Shown piece after piece: positions 11,602 to 40,943 of a DNA stretch of 44,061 bases. The position numbers and the translations under genes were made by a program. The notes under the pieces were generated by a model, which made no database searches, was not told the origin of the DNA, and saw only the letters and a program-made list of their open reading frames with translations. Position 1 is the first letter of the stretch. Each line of letters opens with the position of its first letter. The DNA is from Escherichia phage Dru_SM5: the sequence record PP920550.1; one strand, 5' to 3'.

Positions 11602-11616
11602 TGAAGCGGGGCAGGC

Positions 11617-11637
11617 GGGACGTCCCGTTTTGTCCCG
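11617..11637 (+). terminator. terminator-like hairpin 1 (GGGACGTCCC palindrome + GTTTT)
   Basis: GCGGGACGTCCCG followed by TTTTGTCCCGCC, just after the frameshift-product stop. Confidence 0.4.
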
Positions 11638-11693
11638 CCTCTGTAAAACTGCATATCTACTCACTTCCACTGCATAAACTCAAAACGGGACAA

Positions 11694-11714
11694 GCGGGAC
11701 GTCCCGTTTTGTCA
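11694..11714 (+). terminator. terminator-like hairpin 2 (second copy of GGGACGTCCC + GTTTT)
   Basis: Near-identical GCGGGACGTCCCGTTTTGTC. Part of a roughly 76 bp tandem repeat with hairpin 1. Confidence 0.4.
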
Positions 11715-11734
11715 CGCCCTGTAAATATGCATAC

Positions 11735-11923
11735 CTATGCAGATTTCGTGCATAAACCAAACGGGACAGAAAGCGGGACAAACACGAGGCGGGACAAAAC
11801 GGGACAGCACCCCGTCCCCGCCAGTGCTGCCGCGGTTTTCAGCCGATCGGGACAGCGGGACAGCACCCCAGTCTTTCAGACTAGACGGGGGTCAATGGCC
11901 CCCCCTCGTCTGAGACTGAATAA
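11735..11923 (+). repeat. GGGACA-iteron + GC-hairpin element, copy A
   Basis: About 189 bp with TATGCAG..TGCATAAA, four CGGGACA iterons (11762-11808), two more (11849-11862), then conserved GTCTTTCAGACTAGACGGGGGTCAATGGCCCCCCCTCGTCTGAGACTGAATAA. Roughly 85% identical by eye to copy B. Confidence 0.8.
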
Positions 11924-26990: not shown

Positions 26991-28619
26991 TTAAATTTTC
27001 CTCGTTTTCTTAGCTTTCATGTATTCCATCAAGTCGTCCTGAATATCTCGCTTACTGTCTCGACGCTCGGCGACCAGTTCGTCCAGTGTACCGCGCGCCT
27101 GGATAATGTAGACGAATACCGGACGGGGGTGTCCTGCTTGCATCTGGCGAACCGGCCCGATACGTTCAACGATCTGCGAAAAGTGCTCAAAGTTCCAGGT
27201 ATCGGAGAAGATTGCCAGGTGGTGACCGCCGTCCTGCAAGTTAAGGCCGTGGCCGGCCGATGCCGGGTGTGCAAACATGATGGGTATCTCGCCCCTGTTC
27301 CACGCTTCCATATCCTTATTCCCCTGCTTACCTTTGCCCAACGCAACGCCGTGCGGAAATTTCTTCTTGAGACGCGCCAGGTCATGCTTGTACTGGTACG
27401 CAACGAGCAACGGGGCGCCGTTCAACTCCTCTACGATACTTTCCAGCGCGTCCAGCTTGGCGTCGTGGATCTTCACCCACTCGTCGGTCCGTTCGCCGTC
27501 TTCGTCGACTTTATACACGGCCCCGGAAGCAAGCTGAAGGCACTTAATAGTCTTCGAAGCAGCGTTCGCCGCCTCCACAGTTCCGCTTTCCAGTTCGGCA
27601 AATAGCTCCGCTTCGAACTGGTCATAAATCTTGCGGGCTTTCTTCGGCAGGTCCACAACAACAGGCGTATAGATTGGCTTGTCGCATCCGAAGTATTCAG
27701 CCGCGTCAACGGTGAGGGATACATCAGACAGGCGTTGTTGTATTTCTTTCTCGGAGTTCTTTAGCGGAGCGTGCTGCATCGTGAAGCTGCCGGGGTTAAC
27801 CGGCTTGCTAATGAACCAGCGATCGGTGAATGCCTTATAGCTACTGCCGAGACGCTCGCCACCGTCGACAAACCACGTCTGACCCCATAAGTCTTTTAAG
27901 CCATTAGGCGCGGGTGTGCCGGTCAGGTTAATCCAGCGCTTGACGTGCTTATGTGCAACCGCTGCCAGTGCGCGGGCGCGCTTACTCCCCTGCTTACTTC
28001 GATAGCCTTTCAGCTTAGGCGCGGGTGTGCCGGTCAGGTTAATCCAGCGCTTGACGTGCTTATGTGCAACCGCTGCCAGTGCGCGGGCGCGCTTACTCCC
28101 CTGCTTACTTCGATAGCCTTTCAGCTTAGTGGATTCATCGGCAACAACGACCGTAAAGGGCCACGCATCGCCGTAATAGTCAACCAGCCACTCAACCACA
28201 TCATAGTTAACACAAACCACGTTAGCGTCGCTCTCCAACGCGGCTATGCGGTCTTTCTCCGGCCCAGTGCCGTCTACGACCAGGAGGGATGAGAACCGCC
28301 ATTTCTCCTGCTCCGGGGGCCATGTACCTGACGCAACACGCAGCGGGGCCAGCACCAGTACGCGGTCGTCATGATGGGATAGGACGCCAGTCTGGAACAT
28401 TTTATTCAGCGCCCACATTGTCGCGCCGGTTTTACCGGATCCCATTGTCGCCCAGATATTACATCGCTTATGCTTGAGGATGAACGCGGTTATCAACTTC
28501 TGATATTCGCGGCGTCGGAATCGTGCCATATCTTTATTCCGCCTTTTTCCAGACTTCGGTTTCACTGTTCCAGTTCCTTTTTGTGGCGTCGTAGTTGGTG
28601 GCGTGTCCGATGTGGACAC
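26991..28619 (-). CDS. SNF2/DEAD-like superfamily 2 helicase
   Basis: Motif I WATMGSGKT, motif II VADEST, motif III LTGTPAP (duplicated by a 111 bp tandem repeat), plus C-terminal helicase motifs. Alternative start at 28529. Confidence 0.75.
   Translation of the reverse strand: MSTSDTPPTTTPQKGTGTVKPKSGKRRNKDMARFRRREYQKLITAFILKHKRCNIWATMGSGKTGATMWALNKMFQTGVLSHHDDRVLVLAPLRVASGTWPPEQEKWRFSSLLVVDGTGPEKDRIAALESDANVVCVNYDVVEWLVDYYGDAWPFTVVVADESTKLKGYRSKQGSKRARALAAVAHKHVKRWINLTGTPAPKLKGYRSKQGSKRARALAAVAHKHVKRWINLTGTPAPNGLKDLWGQTWFVDGGERLGSSYKAFTDRWFISKPVNPGSFTMQHAPLKNSEKEIQQRLSDVSLTVDAAEYFGCDKPIYTPVVVDLPKKARKIYDQFEAELFAELESGTVEAANAASKTIKCLQLASGAVYKVDEDGERTDEWVKIHDAKLDALESIVEELNGAPLLVAYQYKHDLARLKKKFPHGVALGKGKQGNKDMEAWNRGEIPIMFAHPASAGHGLNLQDGGHHLAIFSDTWNFEHFSQIVERIGPVRQMQAGHPRPVFVYIIQARGTLDELVAERRDSKRDIQDDLMEYMKAKKTRKI
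27904..28129. repeat. perfect 111-bp tandem duplication inside helicase gene
   Basis: Two identical 111 bp units (period verified 27904 to 28015). Encodes KLKGYRSKQGSKRARALAAVAHKHVKRWINLTGTPAP twice, in frame. Confidence 0.85.
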
Positions 28620-30068: not shown

Positions 30069-32360
30069 TTACTTCCTGTACCGGTACATACAATCGCCTT
30101 CAGCAGAGAGTGGGAAGCCTTTCGCCCATATCGGCAGGTCGCACATCAGCGCGCAAAGCTCCTCGGTCGTGTAGTCGTCGGTGTCCGGCACTTCGGTGAC
30201 CAATTCATCGTGCACTGACAGGACGATTTCATACCCGGCAGCTTCAACGCCTGGCATGGACCACGCGAGGATATCGCGACACAGCGCCTGTACGATGTTT
30301 TCCGTCAGTTTGCCGCCGTAGGTGTACTGGAATCCCCACTGGCGCGTCGTCTGATTCTCGCCCTGGTATTTGATGCGTGTGCTGGTGCGCTTCTTGCCGG
30401 TGTCTTCGTCGATCTCGGTCGTGACAGACAGCGCGATACCGGGATAGCTCATGATGCGCCCCGACGGCAACTCAATTTTCAACCACCACCCCGCAGCGTT
30501 CGGGTCGTCGCGCTCCTCGTCGAAGGTTGGGTCGTGCTTCGCCTTCGTGCGCACAATCTTGAGCGCTTTTCTACCGTCTGGGCGAACGTTAGCGCCAGCC
30601 CAGTAGGCTTTGCCCGGATTGCGGATTGCACACAACACCGCGTCCTCAAGCTCGGCCCAAAATGCTACGGTCTTCGGGTGGGCCTCACGCCACATGCGTT
30701 TGATCGCGTCGCATGTCAGCCATACATTTTTAGGCAGTATGTAGGTTGGGCGCTCGTCTTTCTTGCCAGGCTTCGGCGGGCGCTTCGCTTCGTTAATGCG
30801 GGCGTATTCATAACCCCGTTTAGCCGCTGCCCAAATGTGATCCGGGAACGTGCCTTTCATGACGTCCGCCATAGTGTAAAGGTCGAGGCCCAGGTTTTTA
30901 GCGAACTGTAAGAACGCCGCCACGCCGCCACCATAGCCCAGTCCCAACTCACACGCCTTACCGATCTGGCGCAAGTCTTTGCGGTTGGCTTTGATGTAAT
31001 CCGGGTCAAGGCCGAACATCTTACCGGCAGTCTCGCAATAGATATCGCGCCCGGCCTTAAACACCATTAGCGCGGTTTTCTCGCCAGCGATCCAGGCAAG
31101 GCCGCGCCCTTCCACGTTGGAGAAGTCAGCTACGACAAACTTCTTGCCCTTTGCAGGGATAATGCAGCTGCGTACGGTAGATGCTGTCAGCTTCGATATG
31201 TCGTACGCCCAGTGTGCGGTCCCGCGTAACAGGGAATTGATGCCGTTGGTGAGCATGTGCGACCGGACCCAAAACGACACGTCGCTTTCACCATCACGGC
31301 GCTTGATCTTGCCTTCGTGGTCGTCGCTGTACTCGCCACGCGCCAGGTTTTGAGGCTGAAAACCTTTACCGGCCCAACGCAGTGTACGCTTTGCCCCACC
31401 ATACTGAATGCAACCACGGCGGCGTCCATCGGCAGACAGGCCGTTGACGAGCGGATTATACTTAGTAGATGCCGTTGATGACGCACCGAGACGCATCTCA
31501 ATCAGCGCTTTGCCCTCGTCGGGGAAGTCCGGGTCTTCAAGCAGGTCGTTAAGTGTGGATTTCTGCGCGTTGTGGATTGTGAACGCCGGGGCGATATCAC
31601 GCAGGATTGGCAGGAAGTCATTGCCTGTCAGTTTACCACCAAATCGCTCCCAGGCTTCCTCCTTCAATTCTTCCTTATGCGCCTGCACCGCTTTGATCGC
31701 GGCGTTCGCCAGATCAACGTCCACATAGAAGCCGCGGTCGTTGATCAACTGGTCGATAAGCAGGATTTCATCTTCCTTCGGGGTATTACCCCAGTCCGGT
31801 ATGCGCCAGTAGACCTCCCGCATCGCGATAATATCCAGCGCGGCATATCGCAGAAATTTGGCCCATTCTTCAGGGTGAGTCTCGCGAGTGTAGCGGCGGA
31901 TTTTGTAAGTCTTAGGGGTCGGCTTACAGAATCGTTTAATCAGCGCCTTGCCTGCCTTATCCTTCGCGTGCTCTGCGTCAACGCCCAGAACCTGACACTG
32001 CATATCGAGGCTACCCGGCAGCGCGTGGCGAAAGGCCATAATCATGGTGTCTTCGATCTGGCTTACCGGCAGGTCAATACCCCACTTCTCACGGATAACC
32101 AGGCGGTCAAACAGGAGGCCGTTAGCCATCACGATTTTTGCTTTCTTGCGGGATACATGGCGGAGCGCCTTGCGCAGTTCACGCGGCATTGTGGGGGATT
32201 CAGTGGCATCCCATGTCTGCACGCGGCCTTCGTCGATGGCGTAGGTGCAAATCATAATCTCGGTGGTTGGGTGCTCTGCGTAGGCGTACGCCCCTACTTT
32301 CTTCAGGTCAACCCCGCTGAATGTCTCGGTGTCGAGAAACAAGCGTTCGAAGTCTTTCAT
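30069..32360 (-). CDS. family A DNA polymerase with 3'-5' exonuclease domain
   Basis: Exo I-like LFLDTETFSG; Pol motif A-like VVADFSNVEGRGLAWIAGE; motif B-like QIGKACELGLGYGGG; motif C VLSVHDELV. 763 aa. Confidence 0.8.
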   Translation of the reverse strand: MKDFERLFLDTETFSGVDLKKVGAYAYAEHPTTEIMICTYAIDEGRVQTWDATESPTMPRELRKALRHVSRKKAKIVMANGLLFDRLVIREKWGIDLPVSQIEDTMIMAFRHALPGSLDMQCQVLGVDAEHAKDKAGKALIKRFCKPTPKTYKIRRYTRETHPEEWAKFLRYAALDIIAMREVYWRIPDWGNTPKEDEILLIDQLINDRGFYVDVDLANAAIKAVQAHKEELKEEAWERFGGKLTGNDFLPILRDIAPAFTIHNAQKSTLNDLLEDPDFPDEGKALIEMRLGASSTASTKYNPLVNGLSADGRRRGCIQYGGAKRTLRWAGKGFQPQNLARGEYSDDHEGKIKRRDGESDVSFWVRSHMLTNGINSLLRGTAHWAYDISKLTASTVRSCIIPAKGKKFVVADFSNVEGRGLAWIAGEKTALMVFKAGRDIYCETAGKMFGLDPDYIKANRKDLRQIGKACELGLGYGGGVAAFLQFAKNLGLDLYTMADVMKGTFPDHIWAAAKRGYEYARINEAKRPPKPGKKDERPTYILPKNVWLTCDAIKRMWREAHPKTVAFWAELEDAVLCAIRNPGKAYWAGANVRPDGRKALKIVRTKAKHDPTFDEERDDPNAAGWWLKIELPSGRIMSYPGIALSVTTEIDEDTGKKRTSTRIKYQGENQTTRQWGFQYTYGGKLTENIVQALCRDILAWSMPGVEAAGYEIVLSVHDELVTEVPDTDDYTTEELCALMCDLPIWAKGFPLSAEGDCMYRYRK

Positions 32361-32585: not shown

Positions 32586-33308
32586 TTAACGGCGGCGACG
32601 TTTACGTGGCGCTTCGTCTTCGTCGTCGTCCTCATCTTCGTCATCGCGTGGCTTACGACGTTTGCGAGGTTTTTCATCTTCCTCATCGTCATCACGACGT
32701 TTTGACTTTTTGGACTTACGCGGGCTTTCGTCTTCGTCGTCGTTGTCCAGGTCTTCATCGGAGCAAGACGACCCGCCACCTCCGAAGGCTTCGCCGTCTT
32801 CACGGAATCGCAGACCCAGCAATCCAGCCCCGAGACCCTTGCCGTTGGTATTGTTCCACGCCCAAATATCCAGGGACACATTGCAATAACAACCGGAGTA
32901 GATCTCCCGGCCTTCGATCTCGTCGCCTTCTACGGTCAGACCTTGTTCCGTCTGCTTCTCGCCGAGTGACGTTTGAATGATCGGCTGTTTGAACGATTTG
33001 GCGTTGATGTACAACATGCCTTCGAATTCTTCGGTTACTTCGTCGCGCTCGTCACCGTCGCGAACTGCGCATTCCTTAGAATCCTGGGCGTAGTGGCGGT
33101 CCATCCACTTATCGGCATTCTTCTCGGATTTCAGCTTATCGGTGAGCACTGCGCGCGCTGCCGCTTCCACTTTGTCCACCTGCGGATCTTCTTTATCCAG
33201 AAGAATCACGGCACGGTATGCCGGTTTTTGTCCATCCTGTTTAGGGGTATCACGTTCCCAAATTTTAAGGAAGCATACGCGCACATTTTTCAGGTTGACT
33301 TTAGCCAT
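32586..33308 (-). CDS. putative ssDNA-binding protein with mixed-charge C-terminal tail
   Basis: ATG at 33308 follows a GAGGAA RBS. Globular N-terminal roughly 170 aa, then a Gly-rich linker and a roughly 60 aa tail of alternating acidic and basic clusters ending RKRRRR. SSB call is tentative. Confidence 0.45.
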   Translation of the reverse strand: MAKVNLKNVRVCFLKIWERDTPKQDGQKPAYRAVILLDKEDPQVDKVEAAARAVLTDKLKSEKNADKWMDRHYAQDSKECAVRDGDERDEVTEEFEGMLYINAKSFKQPIIQTSLGEKQTEQGLTVEGDEIEGREIYSGCYCNVSLDIWAWNNTNGKGLGAGLLGLRFREDGEAFGGGGSSCSDEDLDNDDEDESPRKSKKSKRRDDDEEDEKPRKRRKPRDDEDEDDDEDEAPRKRRRR

Positions 33309-33405
33309 TTTCCAATTCCTCATTTTCACATGTATCGGGGTTATTGGAAGCCACCCCGTTCGGCTTGGTTGCTAATTTACTTGGTTGCGCCTAAGCGGTC
33401 AAGCT

Positions 33406-35250: not shown

Positions 35251-35502
35251 TTATTTTGTCTCCCAGCGGTCAATTGTTTTTGCTTCGGATGCAACTGCGA
35301 AGCGAACATATTCCAGATTGGAATCAGCCCAAATATAAAAGTCTGGATTAATAAAGGTGGTGCGCTTAATTTGCGCGGGAGTATTGCGGCGTTTATCTAT
35401 TACGGCAACGCGTGACTGAAAGTTGCCGATGCGTTCGAATAGCCAATAATAAGGGCGTTGGTCGCGTGAATCCACCGCCTCGATTAGCGTGAAGCGTGCC
35501 AT
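35251..35502 (-). CDS. hypothetical protein
   Basis: 83 aa with RBS GAGGA, immediately after a terminator hairpin. Confidence 0.45.
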   Translation of the reverse strand: MARFTLIEAVDSRDQRPYYWLFERIGNFQSRVAVIDKRRNTPAQIKRTTFINPDFYIWADSNLEYVRFAVASEAKTIDRWETK

Positions 35503-35513
35503 TGTCTCGTCCT

Positions 35514-35543
35514 CTAAAAAGAGGCCCGCAGATTAGCGGGCCG
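35514..35543 (-). terminator. minus-strand intrinsic terminator / attenuator
   Basis: Minus strand: GGCCCGC-taatct-GCGGGCC followed by a T-run, then directly the RBS of the 35502 gene. Confidence 0.5.
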
Positions 35544-35550
35544 GAATACA

Positions 35551-36066
35551 TTAATCTTCCAGTTCGAAATAGGTTTCGACGATTTCTTTTAGCTCTGTGT
35601 GGAAGTCTTCGACGTCGTCATCTTCCAGCTTGGCGATTGATTTGATCTCGAACGATTCCAGCAGGTCGTCGAATTCGTCGTTCGCATCGTCGTCGTCACC
35701 ACCGGCAATAATCGCGGCATACTGTTTGATCTCGTCGCGCATCTCTGCCAGCGGATCGGCATCTTTCTTGCCTTTGCCTTTTGCCGGTGCTTTTTTAGAC
35801 TTAGCCGGTTTTTCATCTTCGGCATCGTCGTCTTCTTCTTCTACGACTTCTTTTTTGGCCTTACCCTTCGCCGGTGCTTTTTTAGCTTTAGCCGGTTTTT
35901 CGTCTTCGGCGTCATCGTCGCCATCTTCGACAACTTCTTTTTTGGCCTTAGACGGCTTCTTGTCTTCCTGCTTACCAACGGCAGCGCCAACGGTTTCATA
36001 ATGCTTTGCAATGGTTTCCAGTGCTACTACGCCGCGAGTGATCAGGTTTACGATTTGCTCAAACAT
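35551..36066 (-). CDS. zwitterionic repeat protein (first gene of leftward early operon)
   Basis: ATG at 36066 follows a GGAGA RBS (171 aa). Two tandem roughly 30 aa repeats of KKEVVE-DDDAEDEKPAK-KKAPAKGK-KK, encoded by roughly 99 bp tandem DNA repeats (about 35765-35960). Highly acidic C-terminus. Confidence 0.6.
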   Translation of the reverse strand: MFEQIVNLITRGVVALETIAKHYETVGAAVGKQEDKKPSKAKKEVVEDGDDDAEDEKPAKAKKAPAKGKAKKEVVEEEDDDAEDEKPAKSKKAPAKGKGKKDADPLAEMRDEIKQYAAIIAGGDDDDANDEFDDLLESFEIKSIAKLEDDDVEDFHTELKEIVETYFELED

Positions 36067-36406
36067 GGTATATCTCCGATTGGTTAAGTTTAGGTGTCGG
36101 CAGTTAACTTCGTCGGTGGCCTTAACATATTGCCAGGTTACGCGTTCTCCCGTTCGGGTAGTGGACCTGGTTATATAATCACGGTTGGGAATCCTGACAC
36201 TTCGATCCGTCCCCTGCGTTGCCCCTCTCCAGTTTGCGTCCTGCATCCTGTCGACGGAGTGAATGATAGATTGGTTGCAGGATGGGTGTCAACAACTAAT
36301 TTCAAAAAAAAGCGCCGAGGCAAAATGCACCGGCGCTAACCAATAAGAGACAATGAGACGGGAGTATTATTACACGCGTGCGCGCCCGTTTCAATATCCA
36401 AAGGAT

Positions 36407-39206: not shown

Positions 39207-39393
39207 TATGCAGTTTTATTGCATAAAGTAAGCGGGACAGAAAGCGGGACAAACAAGAGGCGGGACAAAGCGGGACAGCACCCCCGTCCCGCCCCGGATG
39301 ACGCGGCCTGGCGAGGAGCGGGACAGGCGGGACAAACCCAAGTCTTTCAGACTAGACGGGGGTCCATGGCCCCCCTCGTCTGAGACTGAATAA
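39207..39393 (+). repeat. GGGACA-iteron + GC-hairpin element, copy B
   Basis: About 187 bp paralog of 11735-11923: TATGCAG..TGCATAAA, four CGGGACA iterons, two more, then a near-identical conserved hairpin block. A TATAAT box at 39195-39200 sits just upstream. Confidence 0.8.
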
Positions 39394-40360: not shown

Positions 40361-40943
40361 AATTACTATTCCGCCGTAAAGCAGATGGCTACCTAATGCG
40401 GCCGATCCAGGCCCTTGCTACATGCGTGCGCTTGCGCCATGTACACAGCGGACTTGAGTGCCTGGCAGATACGGTTCACCTACCGGCAAACTTTGACGTA
40501 CTCACACATGATATTGAGCGCGGCGATGTTCTGCGTGACATTCGCGACGGGCAGCTATGGATCGTGGAACGCACCTACCGGAACGCACCTACCGGAACGG
40601 CCTGCGTATGCAGACCCGCAAGGGCGGCGTAGTGGGTAACGTTCAGAGGGGTATGACTTACTTCGGCCTTGTCAACTACGAACGAGTGGGCCGCAAATAC
40701 TGCCTACGCAACCGCCAGCCTCATGACCGCGTTGAGTTCCGCAAGTCGCAGCCCGCCTATGCCACCTACGACGCCCACCAGGTGCAGGCGAGGATGAAAC
40801 GCACCGCGCACGAAATCGTCAATCGCTTTGATGCCGTGACAAACGCACAGCGCCATGCGCAGGGATACGGCGTTGGATTCATCCGGGTGGAACGAGACGG
40901 CAGCATGAAGGCCATCGACCCGCGCTCGGTGATTCTGAAATGA
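40357..40943 (+). pseudogene. gene disrupted by 14-bp tandem duplication (frameshift)
   Basis: GAACGCACCTACCG occurs twice in tandem (40567-40580 and 40581-40594). Removing one copy joins track ORFs 40357..40632 and 40557..40943 into one roughly 191 aa frame (...IVERTYRNGLRMQTRKGG...), verified codon by codon. Confidence 0.6.

Follow-up and report, generated by a model that had tools for sequence, protein, structure and literature searches.

A 171-residue protein of Escherichia phage Dru_SM5 is a candidate adaptor of the DUF2800 nuclease module

The genome of Escherichia phage Dru_SM5 (PP920550.1; the whole stretch of 44,061 nucleotides analyzed here is called the window) encodes on its minus strand a 171-amino acid (aa) protein with lysine-rich and acidic repeats (Table 1). 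Judged by profile searches and gene order, this protein is the Dhillonvirus member of a widespread uncharacterized superfamily that accompanies the DUF2800 (AdnA/RecB-like) end-resection nuclease as a conserved companion encoded upstream. [quoted passage not shown] An earlier note on this DNA had seen in the same protein a histone H1-like tail joined to a DNA-mimic domain and had proposed a role in host takeover or anti-restriction; the genomic context points toward a role in replication and recombination, the outcome that the note itself had set against its proposal. The duf2800/gp2.5-like SSB/polA module is among the most widespread replication-recombination cassettes of tailed phages and occurs in phages of Proteobacteria, Firmicutes, Actinobacteria and Bacteroidota. 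The module has been recognized previously (PMC8093625), and 'four hypothetical proteins' are mentioned in it in the paper on the Enc34 SSB (PMC5686142); a companion, that is, a fourth gene of the module, was not described in the literature searched.

Linkage of the gene to the DUF2800 nuclease

We compared the gene order in 52 loci from IMG/VR, phage genomes of 39-47 kb that belong to the Dhillonvirus, Jerseyvirus, Kagunavirus and phiEap-2 types. In every one of these (52/52) the gene was found upstream of the exonuclease gene and on the same strand, and the genes for the DUF2815 protein and the family A polymerase (PolA) followed wherever the fetched DNA extended that far. This synteny of gene and exonuclease is kept regardless of the inversion that the helicase-primase gene has undergone in some lineages. 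Distant members of the family from metagenomes have a similar position: in all seven with usable contigs, the gene is situated 0-60 bp, or one small open reading frame (ORF), upstream of a gene for a Pfam DUF2800 protein. Pfam Enc34_ssDNA-bd is encoded downstream of DUF2800 in four of these seven lineages, and the neighbors on the upstream side vary (SNF2 helicase, UvrD helicase, a helix-turn-helix (HTH) protein or small ORFs).

For the reverse test, 12 far-flung phages were chosen through the nuclease alone. In nine and possibly ten of them (the tenth being, perhaps, Liberibacter phage SC2), the ORF just upstream of DUF2800 has the same layout of an N-terminal helix, a low-complexity spacer and a C-terminal helical part; in the Chivirus and the Vibrio phage one ORF intervenes between this companion ORF and DUF2800. 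Seven of these assignments are backed by profiles (phrog_408/18562, or the hidden Markov models (HMMs) of our alignments A2 or A4), namely those for Chivirus FSL SP-088, Xylella phage Bacata, Corynebacterium phage Lederberg, Paenibacillus phage Pd_22F, a Streptococcus suis phage, a phage of the gut Firmicute Faecalimonas and Vibrio phage 1.093.O. When 1156 six-frame ORFs from 22 loci were scanned with the HMMs in an unbiased manner, the only matches were the upstream companion ORFs. In several lineages the stop codon of the companion overlaps the start of the nuclease gene. Wherever a family member was identified in the loci examined (the 52 viral contigs, the seven metagenomic relatives and 7-9 of the 12 far-flung phages), it precedes a DUF2800 nuclease gene; the gp2.5-like SSB comes next where the DNA extends far enough, and PolA follows in most of these loci. 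On the evidence of this gene order, the gene belongs to the vertically inherited core and goes together with the module of DUF2800 nuclease, gp2.5-like SSB and PolA.

Relatives of the protein

The protein matches the profile phrog_3127 over its full length (E = 1.7e-53), with residues 1-171 aligned to positions 1-178 of the 178 in the profile. When 1.84 billion representative proteins were searched with a profile, 66 matched at E < 1e-3, all of 31-212 aa; 51 of these cover most of the profile, from the N-terminal helix through the C-terminal domain (C-domain), and the other 15 match at one end only or are fragments. The bridging sequences P0142, P0158 and P0165 match phrog_18196, 18562, 408 and 5053, and phrog_7721 is also joined by bridging, which links these PHROG families and phrog_3127, all annotated as 'unknown function', into one superfamily. 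Alignment of the close family (A2) with the distant syntenic ORFs (A4, which includes some sequences found with the A1 profile) by hhalign gave a probability of 97.9% and E = 3.4e-13 over 79 columns, located in the C-domain.

No significant match was obtained for the 171-aa protein in Pfam and NCBIfam scans, or for 30 relatives and 10 distant syntenic ORFs in Pfam scans. Among solved structures, none was related by sequence, or by fold beyond generic helical bundles, and ribosomal protein bS20 gave no significant sequence or fold match. A tblastn search of the phage collection with the distant members P0147 and P0109 found no match. Within named phages, the ortholog HK578 gp44 (143 aa) has the same three-part architecture and the same place upstream of the exonuclease, with one repeat unit compared to two in Dru_SM5. 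The position upstream of the exonuclease was also checked for the homolog gp41 of Jerseyvirus Ent1, and gp46 of Sodalis phage SO-1 is named as an ortholog only in the note of the HK578 record. The BASEL Dhillonvirus phage TheodorHerzl carries a family member (P0043). Edwardsiella phage eiAU Gp46 was found as a fold match in BFVD, where the '13.88 kDa late protein' of Salmonella phage MB78 (Q9T1Z8) was a weaker one (E = 1.3e-3); an experimental basis for its label 'late protein' could not be traced.

Architecture of the protein

The 171-aa protein has a net charge of −22 and contains no catalytic motifs. According to an AlphaFold2 (AF2) model built on an alignment of 24 sequences, it consists of an N-terminal helix, a disordered linker and a folded C-domain (Table 1). 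No other element is as conserved in the close family as the N-terminal helix, in which R11, A15 and E17 are invariant (alignment A2); its hydrophobic moment is 1.42, compared to 0.65 ± 0.33 in shuffled sequences. The hydrophobic N-terminal segment of the earlier note is thus an amphipathic helix and not a membrane segment. A transmembrane anchor similar to that of phi29 p16.7 was considered and rejected: the maximal Kyte-Doolittle mean over 19 residues is 1.05, below 1.6, and the helix contains E3, R11, E17 and K21. A four-helix bundle with the N-terminal helix packed on the C-domain was not supported, as the AF2 model of P0098, a natural variant with a short linker, leaves this helix at a predicted local distance difference test score (pLDDT) of 51-57. 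Since the helix is not docked in the P0098 model, it looks like an independent interaction element, which would probably serve in docking or self-association.

The C-domain comprises helices at residues 105-122, 126-138 and 152-167 and an extra short turn at 144-146. In blocks of 10 residues, the mean pLDDT reaches 92-95 between residues 111 and 160 and 79-83 on the flanking sides. Structure prediction, which the earlier note had proposed as a check, gave a confidently folded C-domain and no fold match to DNA mimics. Three readings of short motifs were not upheld: the acidic loop DDDDANDEF does not fit the EF-hand consensus, F(G/E)(V/I)K(S/T)(V/I)xKL as a motif resembling a helix-hairpin-helix has no profile support, and a resemblance by eye to the C-terminus of lambda Gam ('DDDVE.F') was not supported by a PDB profile search. 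Some relatives deviate from the three-part plan. The metagenomic relatives P0118, P0119 and P0120 (208-212 aa) have two tandem C-terminal domains, and in P0147, P0154, P0146 and the protein of Paenibacillus phage Pd_22F a short beta-strand precedes the N-terminal helix; the doubled domains and added strands suggest modular docking elements.

The linker contains 20 K/R and 21 D/E (counted for residues 32-99), giving a net charge of −1, and the charges are segregated in blocks (z = 5.2 compared to shuffles), whereas the C-terminal 72 residues have a net charge of −20. The description of lysine-rich/acidic repeats followed by an acidic C-terminus in the earlier note was therefore correct. The two tandem units that it reported are also present, but the unit is 29 aa or 87 bp long and not, as was stated, about 30 aa and 99 bp: Tandem Repeats Finder (TRF) detected a single array (35762-35950) with a period of 87 bp, 2.2 copies, 84% matches and a score of 266. 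The two units are identical in 26 of 29 amino acids and 74 of 87 nucleotides, far beyond chance. Twelve codons differ between them, nine synonymously and three non-synonymously; this prevalence of synonymous differences indicates that the repeat is not a fresh duplication and that the protein sequence is under constraint.

The word-indexed search produced 106 homologs, and variation was counted in 95 cluster representatives of the Dhillonvirus clade. Their total length is 115-179 aa, with 33 distinct values, and their linkers are 14-78 aa long and differ in 94 of the 95 proteins, the shortest being that of the 115-aa variant P0098. As the earlier note had supposed, the copy number of the repeat varies: KKEVVE-type units are absent in 11 proteins, single in 46 and double in 38. 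By comparison, the N-terminal 31 residues occur in 18 variants and the C-terminal 70 residues in 39. Constrained, nearly invariant ends around a free middle are the pattern of a spacer. Spacers of syntenic relatives are PT-rich (Corynebacterium), PA/Q-rich (Paenibacillus), AKE-rich (Parabacteroides) or T/K-rich (Chivirus), and K/E-rich spacers with AT-hook-like GRGRP motifs are found in Xylella phage Bacata, P0147, P0148 and P0154. Because the composition varies so much between relatives, it is not the conserved feature, and the Dhillonvirus lysine/acid repeats are one lineage-specific build of a flexible spacer. Its lysine blocks may add weak DNA affinity.

Charge of the C-domain and proposed role

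To compare lineages, the net charge of the last 62 residues was used as a proxy for the C-domain. It is about −7 to −21 in the relatives from enterobacterial phages (IMG/VR and annotated phage records), −1 in Xylella phage Bacata, and −2 to +3 in the Streptococcus, Faecalimonas, Vibrio and Paenibacillus phage ORFs. Across 24 lineages, an inverse correlation was observed between the C-domain charge and the net charge of the nuclease encoded next to it (Spearman rho = −0.62, p = 0.001), and the corresponding values for PolA and SSB were −0.05 and +0.29. The charge difference of the nuclease is dispersed over its core and does not come from a single insertion. The anticorrelation is what electrostatic complementarity in a complex would give, and is only suggestive of it.

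We propose that the protein may be a stoichiometric adaptor or regulator of the nuclease/SSB/polymerase module. The C-domain would contact the nuclease by charge complementarity, and the N-terminal helix would contact a second partner, which could be the replisome, the SSB or another copy of itself. The flexible spacer would set the reach between them, and weak non-specific affinity of its lysine blocks for DNA might contribute. The gene, its architecture and family membership, the synteny, the linker polymorphism and the charge covariation are shown by the present data, from which we infer that the protein binds the nuclease physically and works as an adaptor or regulator. A bolder version is that the family is a fourth universal component of the module that had so far escaped recognition, a flexible tether by which the AdnA/RecB-like nuclease for end resection would be coupled to DNA or the replisome, as a trans-acting counterpart of the linker of the RecB nuclease domain, and that the charge-blocked spacer of varying length in enterobacterial phages may in addition cluster the machinery electrostatically on phage DNA; we consider this version improbable as it stands.

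Several observations weigh against an adaptor role. Two of the same-layout cases, in E. coli phage 606R2 (phrog_408, E = 5e-5 only) and in the Parabacteroides phage (no match), depend mainly on visual reading, and among the 12 phages sampled through DUF2800, at least Achromobacter phage tuull and Brevundimonas phage Poludnitsa have no recognizable member. In Dhillonvirus and Jerseyvirus a terminator separates the gene from the nuclease gene, and in Dhillonvirus two small ORFs do so as well; with a terminator in between, expression is not strictly coupled to that of the nuclease in these genera. The charge anticorrelation is uncorrected for shared ancestry and is based on few independent lineages. 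Finally, the plasmid-expressed Dhillonvirus nuclease alone is active enough to trigger retron Sen3 (bioRxiv 10.64898/2026.07.14.737667), so the companion protein is not an obligatory activator. In the same study, the nuclease ortholog of the Dhillonvirus Bas14, Bas14_0045, was described as AdnA/RecB-like and as a trigger of retron type IX on its own, and its truncations were viable.

If the proposed role is correct, a conserved and abundant non-enzymatic partner encoded just ahead of the nuclease would be an obvious missing piece for understanding the regulation of the module and its sensing by defense systems. For annotation, a testable assignment based on context replaces the tempting label 'DNA mimic/histone-like', and about a dozen PHROG families labeled 'unknown function' become linked in one superfamily.

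Alternative explanations

The main alternative to an adaptor is a DNA-mimic inhibitor of a host end-processing enzyme of the RecBCD type, an analog of lambda Gam or T7 gp5.9 whose C-domain would occupy the DNA-binding site of the enzyme. This is unlikely, although it deserves more weight than the others. The C-domain, with its charge of −20 over 72 residues, is confidently folded, and abundant expression is suggested by the place of the gene, the first one past a promoter close to consensus, and by a terminator of its own; the place also resembles that of lambda gam ahead of bet and exo. However, neither Gam nor gp5.9 nor any solved structure showed similarity in the sequence and fold searches, and the acidity is not conserved in the syntenic relatives from Xylella and Vibrio phages and phages of Gram-positive hosts. 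The lineage-specific acidity weakens a DNA-mimic function as a property of the family, and for the same reasons the DNA-mimic domain of the earlier note could not be upheld. Tight linkage to a phage nuclease across phyla would also be unexpected for an inhibitor specific to a host enzyme. The response to the P2 OLD system bears on both sides. Dhillonviruses are sensitive to P2 OLD, and the triggers of OLD include RecBCD inhibitors (bioRxiv 10.64898/2026.07.10.737580). Yet HK578 mutants escaping OLD were affected in gp43, gp46 and the gp45 promoter region and none in gp44; a 1-nt deletion (frameshift) in gp43 was reported to allow escape, and the authors attributed OLD activation by HK578 to replication and not to RecBCD inhibition (same preprint). 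The gp45 promoter region of these escapers is the intergenic space shared with the gp44 promoter.

The remaining explanations are far less probable. That blocky polyampholyte linkers and oligomerizing N-terminal helices form a condensate scaffold, concentrating nuclease, SSB and polymerase on phage DNA by phase separation, seems highly doubtful: the linker is disordered in the AF2 model, its charges are strongly segregated (z = 5.2), the conserved helix could multimerize and expression is probably high, but the linker is dispensable in length (14 aa in P0098), the charge pattern is missing from many relatives and no experimental hint was found. Slightly less credible still is a histone H1-like or nucleoid-associated protein whose lysine-rich blocks would coat or compact the DNA of phage or host, which corresponds to the DNA-binding tail of the earlier note. 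The KPAKAKKAPAKGK blocks do resemble H1 C-terminal tails when read from the sequence, and the linkers of P0147, P0148, P0154, P0106 and Xylella phage Bacata contain AT-hook-like GRGRP or KRGRKP. Against such a tail, the linker is charge-neutral (net −1) in a protein of net −22, the only arginines of the window protein are R11 and R110 and there is no RGR core, natural linkers can be as short as 14-23 aa, relatives use uncharged PT or PA linkers or AKE spacers, and no Pfam linker-histone or HU/H-NS match was obtained. The least probable explanation is an Ocr/ArdA-like anti-restriction protein or a general host-takeover protein. The acidic composition and the promoter-proximal place of the gene would fit this role, which the earlier note had suggested, but type I and type II restriction-modification systems are reported to act on Dhillonviruses, which are sensitive to them relative to Queuovirinae (PMC8594841). 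Furthermore, Pfam, NCBIfam, PDB and fold searches gave no match to known mimics, HK578 has a separate Lar-like restriction alleviation gene (gp35), and a vertically inherited, syntenic core gene of a replication-recombination module is unlike typical accessory anti-defense genes.

Gene boundaries, expression signals and neighboring genes

The window is an HK578-like E. coli siphophage genome. The region shares 98.7% identity with Escherichia phage JLBYU60, and 175 phage records, mainly from E. coli phages, were matched; each matched record whose taxonomy was inspected belongs to the genus Dhillonvirus. The coordinates of the gene, its signals and its neighbors are summarized in Table 1.

Table 1 Features of the gene for the 171-aa protein and of the surrounding region of the window
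Feature	Coordinates	Strand	Remarks
Coding sequence, 171 aa	35551-36066	minus	ATG 36066-36064, TAA 35553-35551; HK578 gp44 ortholog, PHROG 3127
Shine-Dalgarno sequence GGAG	36074-36077	minus	7 nt upstream of the MFEQ ATG
Sigma-70-type promoter-like site TTGACA-18-TATCAT	36263-36292	minus	11/12 matches; in the divergent intergenic region
N-terminal amphipathic helix, residues 1-27	35986-36066	minus	AF2 helix 2-27, pLDDT ~60
Disordered charge-blocked polyampholyte linker, residues 28-103	35758-35985	minus	pLDDT < 50
Repeat unit 1, residues 40-68	35863-35949	minus	KAKKEVVEDGDDDAEDEKPAKAKKAPAKG; TRF and unit comparison
Repeat unit 2, residues 69-97	35776-35862	minus	KAKKEVVEEEDDDAEDEKPAKSKKAPAKG; TRF and unit comparison
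Folded acidic three-helix C-domain, residues 104-171	35554-35757	minus	Net charge ~−20; AF2
Intrinsic-terminator-like hairpin GGCCCGC-loop-GCGGGCC + T-run	35513-35542	minus	8 nt past the stop codon
83-aa ORF	35251-35502	minus	Next gene after the 171-aa gene; HK578 gp43 ortholog, PHROG 4965 ('function unknown' label)
DUF2800-type PD-(D/E)XK exonuclease, 476 aa	33632-35062	minus	phrog_69 exonuclease; HK578 gp41
DUF2815/gp2.5-like ssDNA-binding (annealing) protein	32586-33329	minus	JLBYU60 and HK578 annotations; HK578 gp40
Family A DNA polymerase (PolA)	30069-32360	minus	Last core member of the module
HTH protein, 109 aa	36467-36796	plus	Divergent from the 171-aa gene
Helicase-primase, 754 aa		plus	Divergent from the 171-aa gene; HK578 gp46

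In the annotation of some records a longer ORF of 231 aa appears, with its ATG at 36246. We consider its use as a start unlikely and take the MFEQ ATG, on these sequence features, to be the real one, because the latter has a GGAG and the equivalent start is preceded by a Shine-Dalgarno-like purine run (GGAG, AGGA or GAGG) in 52 of 52 related loci scanned, whereas the arginine-rich N-terminal extension of 60 aa is not conserved (P0061) and the longer ORF would start only about 10 nt past the predicted transcription start. In the HK578 record, two consensus-like promoters are annotated upstream of gp44 and on its strand. It is only from the sigma-70-type promoter that we infer 'early' expression of the gene; a literature search revealed no transcriptome or proteome data on early genes of Dhillonvirus or Jerseyvirus. 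The 5' untranslated region of about 190 nt has no unusual structure (z = +2.0) and no Rfam match. In the window, the stop codon is followed directly by a GC-rich hairpin and T-run (35542-35523). The same hairpin is kept downstream in the majority of Dhillonvirus loci, some of which have its loop inverted, and a terminator is annotated downstream of Ent1 gp41 of Jerseyvirus. The promoter-like site, the divergent genes for the HTH protein and the helicase-primase and the terminator-like hairpin fit the proposal of the earlier note that this is the first gene of a leftward operon. The order on the minus strand is the 171-aa gene, the 83-aa ORF, a 62-aa ORF, the exonuclease, the SSB and PolA.

Some further observations concern this region. 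A hairpin followed by T8 (36311-36337, minus strand) is located between promoter-like sites at 36394-36366 and 36292-36263. It could end an RNA of about 60 nt or attenuate upstream transcripts; the RNA would carry TCTCTTATTGGTTA, which is complementary in 12 of 14 positions to the ribosome-binding region of the 171-aa gene, and its region (36300-36394) gave no significant Rfam match. The 109-aa HTH protein is called 'transposase', 'resolvase' or 'DNA recombination nuclease inhibitor Gamma' in different records; it has only weak matches to HTH or sigma-70 region-4-like domains, and the names look like annotation drift. In several Dhillonviruses, about 130 bp that contain an ORF of 37-41 aa are inserted past the gene and ahead of the 83-aa ORF (for example L002 3458-3571 and L003 3445-3570, in the relatives 'welsh' and CS16); the window lacks this insertion.

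Other sequence features of the window

At 27904-28129, the window contains a perfect tandem duplication of 111 bp (2.0 copies, 100% identity; 37 codons, in frame) in the minus-strand DNA helicase ORF 26991-28619. When a 631-bp query spanning it was searched, the best 12 of 157 matching phage records each aligned over about 520 bp, from which it follows that the duplication is missing from these 12; either it arose very recently or it is an artifact of the assembly. The plus strand carries arrays of (A/G)GCGGGACA at 11605-11862 (11 copies) and at 39231-39334 (6 copies), the latter directly 3' of the helicase-primase gene, and the motif has 26 matches in the window, compared to 10.7 ± 3.2 expected. 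The arrays resemble iterons, and a replication origin or binding sites of a regulator could be located there. A perfect 14-bp direct repeat, GGAACGCACCTACC, is present in 2.4 copies at 40566-40599.

Comparison with known systems

The protein shares with lambda Gam and T7 gp5.9 that it is small, acidic, helical and non-enzymatic and is encoded beside phage exonuclease and annealing or SSB genes. No similarity to them in sequence or fold was found, its acidity is not family-wide, and its family reaches phages of hosts without RecBCD. Small non-catalytic modulators of recombination encoded beside exonuclease and annealing genes are also known from P22 (Arf/Abc) and lambda (Orf), and the likeness here is that of a small non-catalytic protein in such a position. 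In terms of charge, Ocr and ArdA have a similarly high negative charge density, but no similarity was found, and the reported restriction sensitivity of Dhillonviruses (PMC8594841) sets them apart. The linker resembles histone H1 tails and AT-hook proteins in its Lys/Ala/Pro-rich blocks, and distant family members carry GRGRP-type motifs; in the Dru_SM5 protein, however, acidic blocks neutralize the basic ones, an RGRP core is missing and the length of the region is dispensable.

A comparison within the same gene module is provided by the acidic C-terminal tails of T7 gp2.5 and Enc34 ORF6, which compete with DNA for the basic clefts of replication proteins (PMC5686142). An acidic segment is common to both cases, but here it is a folded three-helix domain on a separate polypeptide, and in the case of Enc34 ORF6 the SSB of the module bears an acidic tail of its own (PMC5686142). 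RecB, finally, tethers its nuclease domain in cis through a long linker, whereas the tether proposed here would be a separate protein.

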